From contig JBIOXB010000203.1 of NCBI GenBank assembly GCA_044869275.1, positions 1 through 38,497 of the forward strand: a DNA stretch of 38,497 nt. Direction: 5' to 3'. The translations under genes and the position numbers were made by a program. The notes under the pieces are model-generated. The model searched no databases, was not told the DNA's origin, and was given only the letters and a program-made list of their open reading frames with translations. Source of the DNA: a bacterium (GTDB taxonomy: Bacteria; Zhuqueibacterota; Zhuqueibacteria; Zhuqueibacterales; Zhuqueibacteraceae). This document shows positions 1-7,328 of this stretch, in pieces; positions within the stretch are counted from its first letter, which is position 1; the number at the start of each line of letters is the position of its first letter.

Positions 1-507
1 CATTGAAACTCAACATTTCCAGCGAAAACAGTTTTTTGGCCAAGATGAGAAGTACCCCAAAGCACGAAGTGCATTGAAACAGCTGGAGCCCATGTCGTCA
101 CCGGTTCTGCGAGGAGCAGGATGAGAAGTACCCCAAAGCACGAAGTGCATTGAAACAGTTCCACGGGGAGCTCAGCTGGCATGAATTGGATGAGAAGTAC
201 CCCAAAGCACGAAGTGCATTGAAACATGTTTATCACCTCCTTTCGGTTGGTTATAGGGGATGAGAAGTACCCCAAAGCACGAAGTGCATTGAAACCCCCA
301 ACGGCGCTGAACTTCAAAATCTGGCATGTACGATGAGAAGTACCCCAAAGCACGAAGTGCATTGAAACGCACGCCATTGAGCTCATGCAGCATATTCTGC
401 GATGAGAAGTACCCCAAAGCACGAAGTGCATTGAAACACGGCAACGAACTGTGGCGATACCTCCTGGTACGATGAGAAGTACCCCAAAGCACGAAGTGCA
501 TTGAAAC
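1..507 (+). CRISPR. CRISPR array, trailer end (continues left of the window); repeat GATGAGAAGTACCCCAAAGCACGAAGTGCATTGAAAC
   Basis: Partial repeat at 1-9 and seven identical 37-bp repeats at 44-80, 120-156, 189-225, 259-295, 332-368, 401-437, 471-507. Seven unique spacers of 32-39 bp. The GCAC-GAA-GTGC hairpin and 3' ATTGAAAC are typical of Cas6-processed type I/III repeats, which suggests + orientation. Confidence 0.98.
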
Positions 508-511
508 GATG

Positions 512-988
512 TTTGTCCGTGGTCAGTTGTTCGTTGTCAATTTGGTTGTGACCCTTCAAAGGTGTGAGTTCACCCAGACCACGAACGACGGACAACTGAC
601 CAACAACCACTGACTACCGAAGGGGAAAGAAAATGGGGAAAACAAATTGTGCGCGCGGCAGACAGTGTTGGAGCGAATATTGCTGAAGGAGTGGGGAGAG
701 GAAGCTTCCAAGATAATCGTCGTTTTGTGAGAATCGCGAGGGGTTCTTTGTATGAAACCAAGCACTTTCTGCGTCGTGTTTACAAGCGGCAGCTTTTGAC
801 ACGCGAGCAAGTAAATAGCCTCAAGCCAATTGTTGATGAGTTGGCACCCAGCTTAAACGCCTATTTGCGTTCCATTGGCGACGTCCCAGAGAAGAAAACG
901 AGCAATGGAAATAAATCAAATCAGAACTGAATCATGGTCTTCCATTTCCCAGACCACGACCCACGGACAACTGACCACTGACCAACCA
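512..988 (+). mobile_element. Heptamer-repeat-flanked four-helix-bundle cassette inside the CRISPR trailer
   Basis: 30-bp direct repeats at 573-602 and 948-977 (2 mismatches) flank the gene. An inverted arm at ~514-536 (TGTCCGTGGTCAGTTGTTCGTTG) is complementary to both copies. Confidence 0.6.
633..930 (+). pseudogene. Four helix bundle protein (23S rRNA-IVP/Avd-like family), N-terminal part deleted and frameshifted
   Basis: GKQIVRAADSVGANIAEGVGRGSFQDNRRFVRIARGSLYET matches the family signature (QxxRAxxSxxxNIAEG...ARGSxxE). The purine-rich RBS and ATG at 633 (ATG GGG AAA) are out of frame with the body, and the usual first helix is absent. GTG at 649 could give a 93-aa truncated product. Confidence 0.8.
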
Positions 989-1010
989 AAGTACCCCAAA
1001 GCACGAAGTG
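989..1010 (+). CRISPR. Truncated terminal CRISPR repeat
   Basis: AAGTACCCCAAAGCACGAAGTG is an exact match to repeat positions 7-28, 481 bp after the last full repeat. Confidence 0.9.
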
Positions 1011-1031
1011 GGTTTAGAGATCAGCTCCCAG

Positions 1032-1088
1032 CCGTGTAATGGCGGGAGAAAGCTTTCGTGGGGGATTACACGACCGTGTAATGGCGGG
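1032..1088. repeat. REP-like repeat (CCGTGTAATGGCGGG twice, with inverted ATTACACG between)
   Basis: Direct copies at 1032-1046 and 1074-1088; 1065-1072 is complementary to 1033-1040. Confidence 0.6.
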
Positions 1089-1089
1089 C

Positions 1090-1365
1090 TGTGTATTCCG
1101 GCCCAAACCTGCCACCCGTTCCGGTGAAAACTGCCACCGATTCCGGACGAAAACTGCCACCCATTCCGGCTGAAACCTGCCACATGACCCCTTCCTTGTT
1201 TTGATTTCACGCTTTCATCTGATGATGGTGAACATTTAACTTCTTCCCTTTTGTCCATGGAATAACAGCGCAGGGAGGAAGTGCAATGCCCATGAGGAAA
1301 ATTGCGATAGAGAGTACGCGAAATCCTTCGCCTCAAAGAACAATGCGATCTCACGCAACGTGCGC
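1090..1365 (+). mobile_element. istA: IS21-family left end with frameshifted istA 5' remnant
   Basis: Starts TG and has four ~22-bp subterminal repeats (TTCCGGnnnAAAmCTGCCAC, ~1095-1183). GGAGG RBS and ATG at 1286 give MPMRKIA, then in a shifted frame VREILRLKEQCDLTQRA, like the IstA N-terminal HTH (MRKIREVLRL). No istB or right end seen. Confidence 0.8.
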
Positions 1366-1655
1366 GGCCGAGTACGATCGCGATCGTAATTCGGTTGCGC
1401 CCTATGGTGGTTACCCACCCCTCGCGTATTCCTCGGCCGGTTACCTCGCCAGGCATGCCGGCTTCCGCTTCCCCGAGGCTTTTTGGTTTTGTTCCCTATG
1501 GGTATGACGCATCAGGTCATGTTCGAAAGGGCAAACTCATCAACTCGTAATTCATTTGCTTCACATCATTTTTTTTCTAAATTCAAGCGTGGTTCTTCAG
1601 TCCCGTAAACTTTGGGAGTTTGGCACAGTGGTTGTCTATTCGATCGAGGCCGAAA

Positions 1656-1901
1656 ATGGGCTTAACAATTCCTGATGAAATTATTCACTCAACGCGAATG
1701 TCCATCCCCGAGTTGAAACAAGAAATCGCCGTCATGCTTTTTGAGAAACAGAAGCTTTCGATGGAGCAGGCTAGTAAATTGGCAGAAATGAGCATACCCC
1801 AATTTCAACACCTGCTTGCGAGCCGACAAGTCCCTATCCACTATGGCGTTGAAGATTTTGAACAAGATTTGGAAACATTAAGGGAAATGAAGAGGCTGTG
1901 A
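1656..1901 (+). CDS. UPF0175 family protein (predicted antitoxin)
   Basis: 81 aa; ELKQEIAVMLFEKQKLSMEQASKLAEMS...FQHLLASRQVPIHY...FEQDL fits the UPF0175 pattern. GAGG RBS before ATG 1656; overlaps the next gene at GTGA. Confidence 0.85.
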   Translation: MGLTIPDEIIHSTRMSIPELKQEIAVMLFEKQKLSMEQASKLAEMSIPQFQHLLASRQVPIHYGVEDFEQDLETLREMKRL

Positions 1902-2118
1902 TAGTTGTGAGTAATACCTCGCCGGTCGTGAATCTCGCCGCTATCGGTCAGTTGCCCTTGTTATCAGCCCTCTATCAAAGTATTATTGTTCTCATCGAGG
2001 CAAAACATAAGGAATGGTCGACCACGTAAAACCGTTGCTGGATGATTTAAGGATTCGGGCCGGTTTTTGGATTGATAATAGATTGTATACCAGGATACTT
2101 CAAACTGTTGCAGAATAA
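1898..2118 (+). pseudogene. DUF3368 (PIN-like) protein, internally deleted and frameshifted
   Basis: N-terminal MIVVSNTSPVVNLAAIGQLPLLSALYQSIIV is joined directly to C-terminal LIEAKHK, then after a frameshift MVDHVKPLLDDLRIRAGFWIDNRLYTRILQTVAE*. The central region is missing. Confidence 0.8.
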
Positions 2119-2314
2119 GAGATCACGGTCAGTCATTCCAGTTTCAAATCTAAATTGTACTGCCAACCTCAGCCTACAGGGATTGCTGCGGCAGCACCAC
2201 GAAATTCCTTTGTTCTAGATTAAAGCTGCTCATCAGTTTGCAGAAAAAATCCAGAGCTTTCAACCTGAGATATCGAAGTTAAATTCTGAGCTTAAGAGAC
2301 TAATCGCATAACGA

Positions 2315-2569
2315 ATGAATTTTATAACCCTCATCGGCTTGGTTGCGGCAACTTTAACCACGGCTTCCTTCATACCGCAAGTCATCAAAAGCTGGAAAAA
2401 CAAATCTGCAAAAGATCTGTCTCTGGGCATGTTTGTGCTCTTCTGCAGCGGCGTGTTGCTATGGCTCGTTTATGGCATTTTGAACAAAGATGCCCCGATC
2501 ATTTTGAGCAACACCGTCACCCTCGTTTTATCACTGACCATCATCATTCTGAAAATAAGGTATGGCTGA
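2315..2569 (+). CDS. SemiSWEET sugar transporter (PQ-loop)
   Basis: 84 aa, three hydrophobic helices; TTASFIPQVIKSWK...DLS...WLVYG...N motifs. Confidence 0.93.
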   Translation: MNFITLIGLVAATLTTASFIPQVIKSWKNKSAKDLSLGMFVLFCSGVLLWLVYGILNKDAPIILSNTVTLVLSLTIIILKIRYG

Positions 2570-3263
2570 GATCTCAACAGTTTCCTCCACGAACCTCCCG
2601 ACCAACTCTGTCCAAGCCGTTCTTTTCGATCTCGATGGCGTGATCATCGACTCGGAACCTCTGCACGTCAAAGCCCTGCAAGCAACTTGTCAATATTTCG
2701 GTTTCACCCTGCGCGAGCAGGATATCGTCAATTTCAAAGGATGGACCGAAGCCAAAGTTGCCAGCCATTTTATTCAAGGTCATGCCACGGCAAGCAGCCC
2801 CTTCAACGCTTTCATCGCGCACAAAAGCCAAATCTATTCCCGGCTGATTCGTGACGAGCTGACGCTGATCGAGGGCGTGGTTGATTTTATGCAATTCTGT
2901 CGCGCTAAGAAATTACGCCTTGCCCTCACCACCTCTGCTCTCGCGGAAAACACCGCAAGCGTGCTCAAAAAATTTCAGCTCGCGGGATTCTTCGAGGCCA
3001 TCGTTACCGGCCAGGACGTGGCGAACAGTAAGCCGCATCCCGAGCCTTATCTCAAAACGGCCCAGAAGCTTCAAATTCACCCGCATCATTGTCTCGTGAT
3101 CGAAGACTCAATCCACGGCGTGCGCTCCGGGAAATCGGCCGGTTGCCGTGTGGCCGGCATTACCACTTCCTTTGCGCGGCGTGATCTCGAAGCCGCCGGC
3201 GCCGACCTCGTCATCGACACATTTGCAGAAGCTCGGAACCGGCTGTTCAAAACCCTCGATTAG
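2562..3263 (+). CDS. HAD family phosphatase (beta-phosphoglucomutase-like)
   Basis: DLDGVIIDSE motif I, TS motif II, KPHPEPY and IEDS motifs; overlaps SemiSWEET. Confidence 0.92.
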   Translation: MAEISTVSSTNLPTNSVQAVLFDLDGVIIDSEPLHVKALQATCQYFGFTLREQDIVNFKGWTEAKVASHFIQGHATASSPFNAFIAHKSQIYSRLIRDELTLIEGVVDFMQFCRAKKLRLALTTSALAENTASVLKKFQLAGFFEAIVTGQDVANSKPHPEPYLKTAQKLQIHPHHCLVIEDSIHGVRSGKSAGCRVAGITTSFARRDLEAAGADLVIDTFAEARNRLFKTLD

Positions 3264-3532: not shown

Positions 3533-4438
3533 ATGGCCTTGAAGCGAATGTTTGTGTTGGGATCGAAGATCTTCGCCCTGACGATCATCATGTTTTTGTG
3601 TTTTGCCGTTGCGGCGGGGGTCGTGAAACCGCCGGCTGGCTCAGAACAAACTACCTCAGAACAAAGTAGCACCGCGCTGCTTTTGTTGCTCATCTGTTTC
3701 TTGACTACAAGCGTGCTTTCTTATATCATTCTTCGTTCTCGTTGGGCGGGCTGGAAATTGATGGCAACGGTCTTTGTCATATTTTATGGCGTCATGACCG
3801 TCATGACGCAGATCGAGTCGGCGGTATTCATCACGCGACTGCCGGCCGGCATGGTGCCGCGCCTTTTTTTGATGGGAGTGATCATTGCCGCGCCCTTCTC
3901 CGTGTTGGCCGTGCTCATCCTCGGCAAACGCAAACCAACAGCCATACCGGAGGAATCAGACCAGAGATTTTTGATGCCCTTCAATGCATGGGCGTGGAAG
4001 CTGGCCATGCTTGCAGCCGCCTACGTAGTTTTGTATTTCACTTTTGGTTATTTCGTTGCCTGGCAAAATCCAGCGGTGCGCGAATATTACGGCGGCACGG
4101 ATTTCGGCAACTTCTTCGCGCAAATGGGCGCGATGCTGCGCGAACAACCCTGGCTTCTGCCTTTACAACTTTTGCGCGGCTTCATGTGGATTGGATTCGC
4201 GTTGCCGGTGATTCGTATGATGAGGGGGGAAAGGTGGGAAATCGCCTTGGCGGTCGGATTATTGTTCGCGGTGATGAACGCACAACTCTTATTGCCGAAT
4301 CCCTACATGCCCGAATCGGTGCGGATCTCGCATCTGCTCGAAACAGCCCCCTCGAATTTCATCTTTGGAGGGCTGGTGGGATGGTTTCTCTATCCCTCCG
4401 CACGCGATTCGGTTGCCGTGGCCACGTCGCGGGCATAA
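3533..4438 (+). CDS. Hypothetical multi-pass membrane protein
   Basis: 301 aa with about eight hydrophobic segments; AAGGAG RBS; family not recognised. Confidence 0.8.
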   Translation: MALKRMFVLGSKIFALTIIMFLCFAVAAGVVKPPAGSEQTTSEQSSTALLLLLICFLTTSVLSYIILRSRWAGWKLMATVFVIFYGVMTVMTQIESAVFITRLPAGMVPRLFLMGVIIAAPFSVLAVLILGKRKPTAIPEESDQRFLMPFNAWAWKLAMLAAAYVVLYFTFGYFVAWQNPAVREYYGGTDFGNFFAQMGAMLREQPWLLPLQLLRGFMWIGFALPVIRMMRGERWEIALAVGLLFAVMNAQLLLPNPYMPESVRISHLLETAPSNFIFGGLVGWFLYPSARDSVAVATSRA

Positions 4439-4464
4439 GGTGAAGTTGCCGGTTTTCGTTTGCC

Positions 4465-5877
4465 TCACGAAAGCATTTTCATGCTATCCGGATCCCACAT
4501 GACCACGCGCTTTTCGATATAGCTATTGTTAGTGAGCAACGCCGGCGCCGCAGCGCGGAAGCCGTACATCGGATCTTCAGTGACCGGCTTGCCCCCACGA
4601 ATGGCATTGAAAAAATTGTAAAAGTGGTCGAGACGATCGTCGTATCCCTCGGGCGCTTTGTATTCGCTTGAGCCCTCGAGGCGGGGCCGGCCGGAGTTCT
4701 TCGCCCGTTCCGCGCGGTATTGTTCCGCAAATTGTTTTTGCGCTGCGCTTGCAAATGTGCGCACGGAATTGTAGCCTTCCAACACGTCTTTCTCACTCTC
4801 TTGATAAATGCCGCGATGCGCCACCTTGACGCCGTCCCCGGCAATGGTCATCGTGCCTTCACTGCCGATAAATCGAATGCCCTCGCCGCTGTCGCTACCG
4901 TCGATGAAATTGGTTGACAACGAAATGGTGAAGGCGGAATGGTTTTCCGTTTTTGGATAATTGTACAAACCTTGAATCACATCGGGCGCATCGCGGCCAT
5001 CTTTCCAATAACGCAGACCGCCGGTGGACATGATCTGCGTGGGCCCTTGCGATCCCAACACGTGATGAATACCGGAAAACAGATGCACGAACAGATCTCC
5101 CGGAATGCCGGTGCCGTAATCATAGTAATTGCGCCATCTAAAAAAGCGCACGGCATCGAAGGGACGTTTGGGCGCCTCGCCGATAAAGCGGTCCCAATCC
5201 AACGTCTGCGGTGAAGCATCCGGAGGAATCGAGTATTGCCACGCGCCAATCGCCGAATTGCGTTTCCAACTGGCTTCCACCATATTGAGCTCGCCGATCG
5301 CGCCGGCATTGTACAGCTCCTTGGCTTTGTCATAAATAAGCGAGCTGACAAACTGGCTCCCCACTTGCAAAACCTTTTTGCTCTTGCGCTGCGCCTCGAT
5401 CACGCGTGCGCCGTCTTCCAGCTTTTGCACCATCGGCTTTTCGCAATAAACGTGCTTGCCCGCTTCCATGGCCTCGATGGAGATTTTCGCATGCCAATGA
5501 TCCGGCGTGGAGACAATCACGGCGTCGATATCAGGACGATTGAGAATCTCGCGATAATCGCGCGTGGTGAAAACCTCTTTGCCAAAAATTTCATTGGCGC
5601 GCACGCGCCGGCCATCATATAAATCAGCCGCAGCCGCCAGCTCGATACCCGGCACCTGCAACGCCGTCTCGGTGTCGATAAAACCGATGATGCCCATGCC
5701 GATGGTGGCGAGGCGAATTTTGTCGCTGGGGGCAATGGCCTCGTTATCGAAATCACGCGAGGGAATCTCTTTGACATTAGCTGAAAATATGGCCGGTAGC
5801 GCACCGGCGGCAAACGCCGAAGTCGCAGCAGCGTGCTTCAGGAAATCTCGACGGGAATAGCTTTGATTGGAATGCAT
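4465..5877 (-). CDS. Tat-exported Gfo/Idh/MocA oxidoreductase
   Basis: SRRDFLK twin-arginine signal; GMGIIG Rossmann motif; STPDHWH, YCEKP, WRNYYDYGTG and DLFVH motifs. Confidence 0.93.
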   Translation of the reverse strand: MHSNQSYSRRDFLKHAAATSAFAAGALPAIFSANVKEIPSRDFDNEAIAPSDKIRLATIGMGIIGFIDTETALQVPGIELAAAADLYDGRRVRANEIFGKEVFTTRDYREILNRPDIDAVIVSTPDHWHAKISIEAMEAGKHVYCEKPMVQKLEDGARVIEAQRKSKKVLQVGSQFVSSLIYDKAKELYNAGAIGELNMVEASWKRNSAIGAWQYSIPPDASPQTLDWDRFIGEAPKRPFDAVRFFRWRNYYDYGTGIPGDLFVHLFSGIHHVLGSQGPTQIMSTGGLRYWKDGRDAPDVIQGLYNYPKTENHSAFTISLSTNFIDGSDSGEGIRFIGSEGTMTIAGDGVKVAHRGIYQESEKDVLEGYNSVRTFASAAQKQFAEQYRAERAKNSGRPRLEGSSEYKAPEGYDDRLDHFYNFFNAIRGGKPVTEDPMYGFRAAAPALLTNNSYIEKRVVMWDPDSMKMLS

Positions 5878-5940
5878 GGCCTCTCCTCATCGTTTTCTTT
5901 GAGTTTGCAAATGCGCCGTTCTCCCAGCACTGGGGAAGAT

Positions 5941-6060
5941 TCAGACAGTGTGAAAACTTGGAAATGCCGCACCCTGCGCTTGTCGAAGGGTGCTAAGTTC
6001 AAAAATCCGGCTTCGACAAGCTCAGCCGGCGTTAAAACCAAGCGTTTTCACACAGTCTGA
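5941..6060. mobile_element. MITE family B with REP-like core
   Basis: 17-bp inverted ends TCAGACAGTGTGAAAAC / GTTTTCACACAGTCTGA (1 mismatch); core CTGCGCTTGTCGAAG...CTTCGACAAGCTCAG; second copy at 19884-19977. Confidence 0.8.
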
Positions 6061-6128
6061 TTTCTACGAACAGACCTGCCAAGACAGTGCCGGGCTTTGG
6101 CGGGAAGCTTGAATTGATCAAGCTCATC

Positions 6129-7328
6129 TTATTTTATCACATTTGTAATCTCGCCGGTTCTTTTATGCTTGAGAATGTACTTCGTCACGCCGTCCGGCAT
6201 GCGCTCGCGTTTGATTAGAATCTGGCCTTCAAACTCCTGTGCCGGCGCTTTAATTTTTTCAACTTGTGTTGCGCCGCGCCATACGCCCAGCTCCACCGGC
6301 TCCCATAGCTTGGTGCGCGCCGACTGATAACACGCGTCCAGGATGGCGTTGACGACATAGCCATCGTAAAATGTTTCCCTCGGCGCACTACCGCCGTCCC
6401 ATGCTTCAAACATATCCGCAAACATGTGCACATAGCCAAGCTCATTGATCTCGTCGCCAACGGGAAAGAGCCAGCCGCTTTCGCGCTCGGATTTTTCCGC
6501 AACGTAGCCGCCGCTTTCGCCGCTGGTGAACATTTCAAAGCCGGTGCGGAGAAAATGATTGAGCCAGAGCGTGCCCTGTGTGCCCGAAACTTCGTCGCGT
6601 AAATCCATGCCGCCGCGAAAGGCCCAGCTCACTTCGAATTGGCCTACTGCACCGGTGGCGAATTTGATCAAGCCGATGCCGTGATCTTCCGCTGCAATGG
6701 GATGCACGAGCGTGTCCGTCCAGCACATGGCCTCCACCGGTCTGATCTCTTTGCCGACATAATTGCGGAGAATCTCAACACAATGACAGGCAAGGTCGAT
6801 CAGCGCGCCGCCCCCGGCTTCCTTGGCATCCCAGAACCAGGCGCTGTGCGGGCCAGGATGCGACTCGCGCGAGCGCGCCCACAGAATTTGACCGAGCGCG
6901 CCCTTCTGGATGGCGTCGAGAGATTTGAGCATTTTGGGCGTGTAAACCAAGTCTTCGAGATAGCCGTGAAAGACGCCGGCTTTCTCCACGAGGTCGAGCA
7001 TGCGTCTCGCTTCCTCGGCGTTACGGCCGAGCGGTTTGGTGCACAAAATGGCTTTGCCGGCTTTGGCAGCCAAGCCCACGGCTTCTTCGTGCAAATGATT
7101 GGGCAAGCCGATGACGACGCAATCGGTTTCAGGATCGTTGATGGCTTTCGCAAGATCAATGGTGGGCTTGGGAATTTTCCATTCGCCGGCGAACCTCTGC
7201 GCACGCTCGGCGTTACGAGAATAAACCACGTGCACGCGATCGCGCTTGCGTTGGCTGTGCAGCGTCATCGTGTAAAACCTCCCGATCAAGCCCGTGCCCA
7301 ACATGGTAATCTTGTGGGACTTTTCCAT
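6129..7328 (-). CDS. Gfo/Idh/MocA oxidoreductase (no signal peptide)
   Basis: [29 protein letters not shown]. Start placed at ATG 7328 (MEKSHK) behind AAGGAG. Confidence 0.92.

Follow-up and report, generated by a model that had tools for sequence, protein, structure and literature searches.

A four-helix-bundle gene cassette in the last spacer slot of a CRISPR array, and its counterparts at array ends of related genomes

The stretch of DNA analysed here (the window, 38,497 nt) begins with a CRISPR array whose last full repeat (471–507) is separated by 481 bp (508–988) from a 22-nt core of the same repeat (989–1010). This confirms the sequence-only reading, which had placed 481 bp instead of a ~34-bp spacer in the last spacer slot. 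In order, the insert consists of a left arm, a short loop, an inner right arm, a four-helix-bundle pseudogene and an outer right arm. The arrangement of a cassette at an array end is real, recurs in other genomes and is apparently unpublished; no description of such cassettes in CRISPR arrays was found in the literature searched, subscription papers and supplements aside. We tentatively favour, with a probability of roughly 45%, capture of the cassette as a giant spacer by the array's own Cas1-Cas2 and reverse transcriptase (RT), after which it was locked in place and amplified via repeat slippage.

The array part in the window (1–507; all features described are on the plus strand) comprises a 9-nt repeat end at the contig edge and 7 exact 37-nt repeats at 44–507, with spacers of 32–39 nt. 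The last intact repeat carries a 4-bp hairpin with a 3-nt loop, followed by an 8-nt handle; as in type III systems generally, this is the putative Cas6 site. Contig C203 of genome G000 starts with the window, and the leader and 15 further repeats of the array lie at the end of contig C154 of that genome, so that the window holds the trailer end. From the repeat split between them, we infer that C154 and C203 adjoin. Upstream of the leader, C154 carries cas10, csx19, RAMP genes, cas6, a stand-alone RT gene, cas1 and cas2. The window array thus belongs to a type III-D-like locus with an RT in its adaptation module, where the profile matches of csx19, cas6 and the RT score below curated cut-offs. 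The RT is a separate 306-aa ORF and is group II-like. A self-targeting search with the 22 array spacers gave no long match elsewhere in the genome. No promoter or intrinsic terminator pattern was detected by a scan of window positions 1–1400, and Rfam gave three matches to 1–1600, all far below gathering scores.

Two ORFs without NCBIfam matches lie between cas6 and RT-cas1-cas2 in this locus (L001:9546–11903, on G000:C154). Homologues of both, in conserved order, are present in G003, G006, G007, G009, G012 and G019, and the second also has a homologue in G021; the two may be conserved members of the RT adaptation module. The same locus contains two paralogous TIGR03986 RAMP genes (L001:521–2929 and 3951–6452), about 41% identical. 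Each encodes a cold-shock-like domain at the N-terminus, and a SAVED-domain gene comes next.

The left arm (511–538) starts 3 nt past the repeat end and is built of imperfect 7-nt units. It is complementary to the inner right arm (573–612), the two enclosing a loop (539–572), and it closes a long stem with the outer right arm (948–986), which extends over the site where the next repeat would begin. The right arms are direct repeats of each other: the 30-bp copies reported earlier (573–602 and 948–977) match at 28/30 positions, and the identity is 86% over 37 nt. That the inverted left arm can pair with either right copy was also borne out, with duplex energies of −39.2 and −34.1 kcal/mol, neither of which was equalled by any of 500 shuffles (0/500 each; means −16.5 and −18.3). 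The small hairpin (508–612) folds at −39.2 kcal/mol, and the outer stem (515–533/964–982) has a computed pair probability of about 0.85. The whole 560-nt region is not unusually stable (folding z −0.61), a global z-score being uninformative here. The terminal repeat core at 989–1010 is an exact match to repeat positions 7–28, with a chance expectation in the genome of 7e-7. It is without 6 nt at its 5′ side and 9 nt at its 3′ side, so that neither the final base of the Cas6-type hairpin nor the 8-nt handle is left. A separate multi-copy palindromic element outside the cassette (1010–1088), with matches on 7 other contigs, truncates it one base short of the hairpin end.

The bases GATG at 508–511, which are also the first bases of the repeat, had suggested that the cassette split a repeat. 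They are present, but overlap the arm start and have no counterpart elsewhere: other cases begin with GGAG, CGAG, GAAG, TGAG, TTGG or GCAA past an intact repeat end. The split-repeat model was rejected.

Further downstream, four spaced direct repeats of 22–23 nt and then a short broken ORF (1095–1199 and 1286–1507) resemble an IS21-family end and a transposase remnant. Similar ends are found past terminal repeats in G001, G014, G015, G016 and G004. A small gene pair at 1620–2100, with a 93-aa ORF and a broken partner, resembles a UPF0175/PIN-type antitoxin-toxin pair.

The gene within the insert retains 96 codons (640–930). Its ORF scores 76.2 bits against TIGR02436 (cut-off 24; profile positions 29–108 of 109) and 76.9 bits against PF05635 (cut-off 33.8), far above both cut-offs, so the earlier four-helix-bundle assignment stands; the protein also has weak matches to the solved structures 2gsc and 2rld. 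The NCBIfam and Pfam libraries contain models for Avd, the accessory protein of diversity-generating retroelements (DGRs). Of the two models proposed earlier for comparison, the 23S rRNA intervening-sequence protein model TIGR02436 matched, while no Avd-named model was among the NCBIfam and Pfam matches to E 0.1. The gene is incomplete, with profile positions 1–28 absent. An RBS-like purine run (620–625) and the probable original ATG (633) are preserved within 620–635, but the ATG is now out of frame and opens a 17-aa frame only. By comparison with the N-terminus of the intact G116 homologue (69–73% identical), about 36 codons near the gene start were probably lost through deletion at a 9-nt microhomology (640–648). 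The window copy is a dead pseudogene and, with gene and terminal repeat both broken, is probably inert.

Cassettes of this design are common outside arrays. We inspected 8 distinct close homologues from outside the genome (7 genomic and 1 viral, 40–73% identity), and all were free-standing, arm-flanked cassettes between genes with no CRISPR repeats nearby, often with a small empty hairpin ahead of the gene. The window protein matched two loci in the viral collection, one being a free-standing cassette and the other spurious; the G012 protein had no match there. G000 itself has 10 TIGR02436 matches, most of them between heptamer arms. Of 896 long ORF ends sampled in the genome, 45 (about 5%) are followed by arm hairpins, and at least four gaps of its cas operon contain arms or gene remnants. 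The cassette class is therefore abundant and the local background high, and the unit does belong to a widespread class of small cassettes, as first proposed. Similar genes and arms without an array, which might have indicated an array grown up beside the gene, do exist in relatives, but they leave the downstream repeat copy unexplained. In two other genomes (L138, G016:C308; L140, G002:C12), an armed four-helix-bundle cassette exactly fills the gap between the RT gene and cas1.

To survey the genomes of the phylum, which the labels of related proteins indicate to be KSB1, we read 51 array ends followed by 100 nt of sequence or more, drawn from part of the arrays in 40 matching genomes. The first 19 loci were picked by likeness to the window repeat and the others by generic patterns. 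Six arrays ending less than 100 nt from a sequence edge and 4 non-array loci were dropped before this count, and G007:C143 and G004:C54 were left out of it, as the search pattern that led to them included the start of the arm. Heptamer periodicity (P ≥ 13, a threshold chosen after the known cases had been seen) was detected directly past the last or second-last repeat at 12 of the 51 ends, compared with 14 of 1199 inner spacers; one of those 14 is in fact a cassette unit. The positive ends comprise six arm types and five repeat sequences. A single arm type accounts for seven of them, which may all derive from one event. Counted per arm type (6/45), the p value is 4e-4 against the spacer rate and 0.024 against the 5% gene-end rate, both optimistic owing to kinship. 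All 12 positives have repeats of 36–37 nt, and none of the 17 arrays with 30–32-nt repeats is positive. This last result is weakened by G062, whose 30-nt-repeat array has, close to its end, three long units with heptamers that escape the test. No mid-array cassette was present among about 1386 units.

In a second phylum (one class, Chloroflexota), 0 of 27 array ends passed the same test. One case was recognised by eye (G193), consisting of a hairpin, a repeat and a four-helix-bundle remnant, and arm pieces were likewise seen by eye at the array ends of G404 and G375. A metagenome scan with a 21-nt repeat core yielded 2 loci, one ending inside the array and the other with a normal end.

The relatives show the arrangement in several states. 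In G009 a 132-repeat array is followed by a repeat, a hairpin, a repeat of the array's own type without 3 nt, arms and an intact gene. In G012 the hairpins are separated by five shortened repeats, with an intact gene and a partial repeat after them, while in G007:C143 an intact gene lies between two mini-repeats that keep hairpin and handle. In G019:C3a six units of 141–149 nt, each a repeat-like sequence plus a hairpin, precede an intact gene with different arms; the handles of these repeat copies are degraded. The hairpin of G021 lies between two repeats of unrelated sequence. An empty-allele comparison, suggested at the outset, was provided by the syntenic arrays of G013 and G004, the former with a normal last spacer and the latter with two hairpin units before the aligned terminal repeat. 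In the same locus as the array, RTs 61–76% identical to that of G000 are encoded in G003:C17, G006, G009, G019, G021 and G007:C143. G004 and G015 are cassette-positive although no RT of the G000 clade was found in them, and G013 has an RT of this clade with a normal array end.

The cassette proteins of the window, G019 and G012 are 32–34% identical to each other, whereas the nearest repeat-free relatives are 69% (window protein) and 63% (G012 protein) identical. This difference indicates that at least three cassettes were recruited separately. In 167 genomes the G012 protein had 7 matches. Three of these, at 83–100% identity, sit behind repeat ends, and all 3 members of this clade have intact ORFs; the other four (54–64%) are not behind repeats, two of them lying between an RT gene and cas1.

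The main argument for capture comes from the junctions. The hairpin unit begins 0–3 nt past a repeat end, and the repeat copy that follows sets in with about repeat position 1–8. This near-zero spacer residue recurs in five unrelated arm types (window, G009/G007/G012, G019, G021 and G193). A repeat-duplicating integration yields such hairpin-as-spacer junctions directly, which points to Cas1-Cas2 as the enzyme with that specificity, so the junctions suggest that the window cassette was integrated by Cas1-Cas2. Consistent with this are the enrichment at array ends over inner spacers, the confinement of the positives to arrays with 36–37-nt repeats, the low identity among the three cassette proteins, the RT in the same locus of six relatives, the fact that an RT gene and cas1 flank two of the four nearest homologues of the G012 gene that lack repeats, and the G013/G004 pair.

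The key steps would be as follows. The insert would be the decayed copy of a cassette resembling an intervening sequence, with heptamer arms and a four-helix-bundle gene, whose integration duplicated the repeat. Most likely the array's Cas1-Cas2 carried this out on cassette RNA or cDNA, with the aid of the locus RT. Source cassettes are abundant in transcribed intergenic gaps, those of the cas operon included, and the computed fold of the cassette RNA would bring both its ends together in a long stem, from which a nuclease such as RNase III may release it, by analogy with 23S rRNA intervening sequences (IVS). One RNA end would then be joined at the repeat's 5′ edge, or a few bases inside it, and the RNA copied; judging by the junctions, the product would be a repeat, the cassette and a slightly 5′-eroded repeat. 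Single-stranded RNA with a tail can be integrated by RT-Cas1 first and copied into cDNA afterwards, according to 10.1101/2023.09.01.555893, which mentions RNase III as one way in which suitable RNA ends arise; the spacers dealt with in its accessible part are near 30–35 nt, short compared with 481 bp. The unit is found only at the trailer, and its persistence there would reflect slower deletion, the spacers behind the cassette having been lost. Misalignment between repeats or between right arms would then amplify the unit or delete its gene, recombination between the two right arms giving an empty hairpin, and could produce the tandem units of repeat and empty hairpin seen in relatives. The trailer position and the tandem units fit the account of PMC11472070, as far as its text was accessible, that last spacers are deleted less often and that duplications arise via repeat misalignment. 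In G000, gene and terminal repeat would since have been broken, leaving a copy that is probably inert.

Several observations stand against capture. New spacers enter arrays at the leader, yet no cassette was found in mid-array. The frequency of arms past long ORF ends sets a high local background, against which the enrichment reaches only p 0.024. Four arrays of the phylum have arms or a gene remnant beyond their degenerate terminal repeat, and the gene-bearing units of G009:C34 and G019:C3a have no repeat after them. The distribution of the clade RT over G004, G015 and G013 does not follow that of the cassettes. In G193 the left repeat is eroded and the right is not, and the test was negative throughout the second phylum.

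Much of this evidence favours the possible, if somewhat doubtful, alternative that the cassette came by its own insertion route, as in intergenic gaps, with Cas1 and the RT uninvolved. Array ends would then be neutral transcribed ground, and the repeat-bounded look would come from one later tandem duplication of terminal repeat plus hairpin, and slippage. The arm hairpins at ORF ends and in cas operon gaps and the repeat-free state of all 8 inspected homologues agree with such a route, as do arms directly behind terminal repeats in G007:C45, G014:C88, G009:C54, G019:C3a and G375 and the gene-bearing units lacking a following repeat in G009 and G019. The window array end has also gathered two other repeated elements, and the reported behaviour of last spacers and repeat misalignment (PMC11472070, in its accessible text) suits this alternative too. 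However, it requires that arm ends joined by chance within about 8 nt of the repeat's 5′ edge in five arm types, leaving no spacer residue, and it does not account for the absence of positives among the 17 short-repeat arrays, some of which are in genomes of the same family.

An unlikely, more far-reaching form of capture is that the cassettes move via RNA using host RTs, with some lineages residing in RT-bearing type III arrays. This would include Cas6 release at flanking repeats or mini-repeats, copying by the RT, installation of gene-sized spacers by Cas1-Cas2 and perhaps a cassette protein acting as an Avd-like RT helper.

It is improbable that the hairpin serves the host, which would retain it as a functional pre-crRNA 3′ end (a terminator, nuclease site or stability element) or as a processing site uncoupling the array from the downstream adaptation genes, the gene being dispensable. 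Arms do remain where the gene is gone or broken (window, G003, G004 and G021), and in G009, G019:C3a, G021 and G007:C143 the cassette separates the array from RT-cas1-cas2. Moreover, in 23 downstream or interspersed repeat copies, which are not independent, the 4-bp stem keeps 81/92 pairs, against 220/414 positions for the 5′ 18 nt. But a deletion at a GC microhomology shared by arm and repeat can explain the conserved stem, 39 of the 51 array ends have no cassette, the window's own downstream hairpin is broken and no intrinsic terminator pattern was found in window positions 1–1400.

We consider it quite improbable that the unit is an active, array-specialised selfish element, in which Cas6 cuts the flanking repeats or mini-repeats to give a unit-length RNA, the cassette protein helps the RT in the manner of Avd in DGRs, and the copy is inserted again by Cas1-Cas2. 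The 83–100% clade (3/3 members behind repeat ends, with intact ORFs), the gene between two mini-repeats that keep hairpin and handle in G007:C143, and the six tandem units plus intact gene of G019:C3a would suit such an element. The tandem units are, however, explained by slippage, the handles in G019 are degraded, no Avd-named model was among the matches, and G000 has no dispersed near-identical repeat-bounded copies.

The one further copy in G000 is a partial one on contig C94, 93% identical over 334 nt and with its own repeat core, present in sequencing runs X1 and X2. We rejected C94 as an independent, permuted insertion: the region is 83% identical over 837 nt to the cas locus contig C154 and is a deleted paralogue of that locus, which has lost the stretch from cas6 to the array except for 12 nt of repeat end. 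At G000:C94:33107–34250 (L002), the start of a four-helix-bundle gene, these 12 nt and the 3′ half of the window gene are fused into a single 75-codon frame. From the 93% identity, the arrangement is older than about 7% divergence. Contigs of run X1, which may be the source sample of the assembly, match 478–864 and 930–1039 with no differences, in agreement with intact junctions at 507/508 and 988/989, although the contig over 478–864 has 30 nt left of 507/508, one short of the bridging threshold. Misassembly or chance juxtaposition, to be considered in a metagenome-type assembly with the array at a contig edge, is largely refuted by these exact contigs, the C94 paralogue and recurrence in other genomes, and is very improbable.

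Among known systems, the cassette resembles ORF-bearing 23S rRNA IVS, which are excised from precursor RNA by RNase III. In the window insert too, the ends are computed to pair into a long stem. The accessible text on the Coxiella burnetii IVS (PMC4990558) describes an element of the same family (PF05635), with a decaying ORF, of similar size (428 nt vs 481 nt) and likewise embedded in a structured non-coding precursor RNA. The window cassette is nevertheless not a 23S IVS, since its flanks are CRISPR repeats and its host RNA is the pre-crRNA, not rRNA; it also differs in its heptamer-run arms and, as a class, in tandem amplification together with repeats. The free-standing cassettes share its gene-plus-arms design but, unlike it, do not sit between two CRISPR repeats. 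Intergenic repeats of the heptamer TAACTGA have been described (PMC4679880; see also PMC4692102), and the main text of PMC4679880 does not contain 'helix bundle', 'intervening' or 'CRISPR'.

As a spacer, the insert has a repeat on each side (full on the left, a 22-nt core on the right), but at 481 bp compared with 32–39 nt for the 22 spacers it is about 13 times too long. The Marinomonas mediterranea RT-Cas1 type III system (10.1101/2023.09.01.555893, accessible part) resembles the window locus in having a group II-like RT by cas1/cas2, and its RNA-derived spacers are, like the cassette, repeat-bounded. It differs in that the RT of G000 is a separate ORF and that the insert is self-derived, structured, gene-bearing and confined to the trailer. 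Avd has a related four-helix-bundle fold and occurs near an RT, as does the window protein, which lacks an Avd-named match. A general repeat listing gave no template/variable repeat pair in window positions 1–3000, and no adjacent DGR RT was identified. The cassette has terminal inverted repeats (24 nt, 88%) like those of an IS or MITE, but with one partial copy, in a deleted paralogue, and no transposase inside, it is not an IS or MITE in the usual sense.

These junctions bear on how four-helix-bundle/IVS cassettes and heptamer-repeat hairpins spread. They are informative because the integrase, repeat bounds and processing enzyme of the site are known, which makes the question open to direct experiment. 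If RT/Cas1 made the inserts, spacer length would vary much more than is assumed, a point of importance for RNA recording tools. Movement via host RTs, were it true, would mean that a selfish element uses the CRISPR adaptation machinery for its replication, and that RT/Cas1 is able to write structured RNAs of 100–600 nt into an array. Even on the ordinary reading, array ends repeatedly contain gene-sized or hairpin spacers with eroded repeats, a structure that standard array callers would clip.

Some array features were observed besides these. A few normal-length inner spacers of L098 (G009:C34) and L187 (G165:C15) are heptamer runs like cassette arms, and were possibly acquired from such arms. 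The array end of L142 (G062:C100) has three near-identical units of 113–129 nt with eroded repeats, and at that of L101 (G016:C59) a REP-like hairpin stands in place of the 5′ part of the terminal repeat. G016 also contains many dispersed mini-arrays with a 30-nt repeat, e.g. L203 (C300:1500–4500), L205 and L206. Their spacers come from a small recurring set, partly palindromic, which is found in the last units of the C222 array (L196) as well; this looks like repeat-plus-hairpin-spacer units spreading through one genome.
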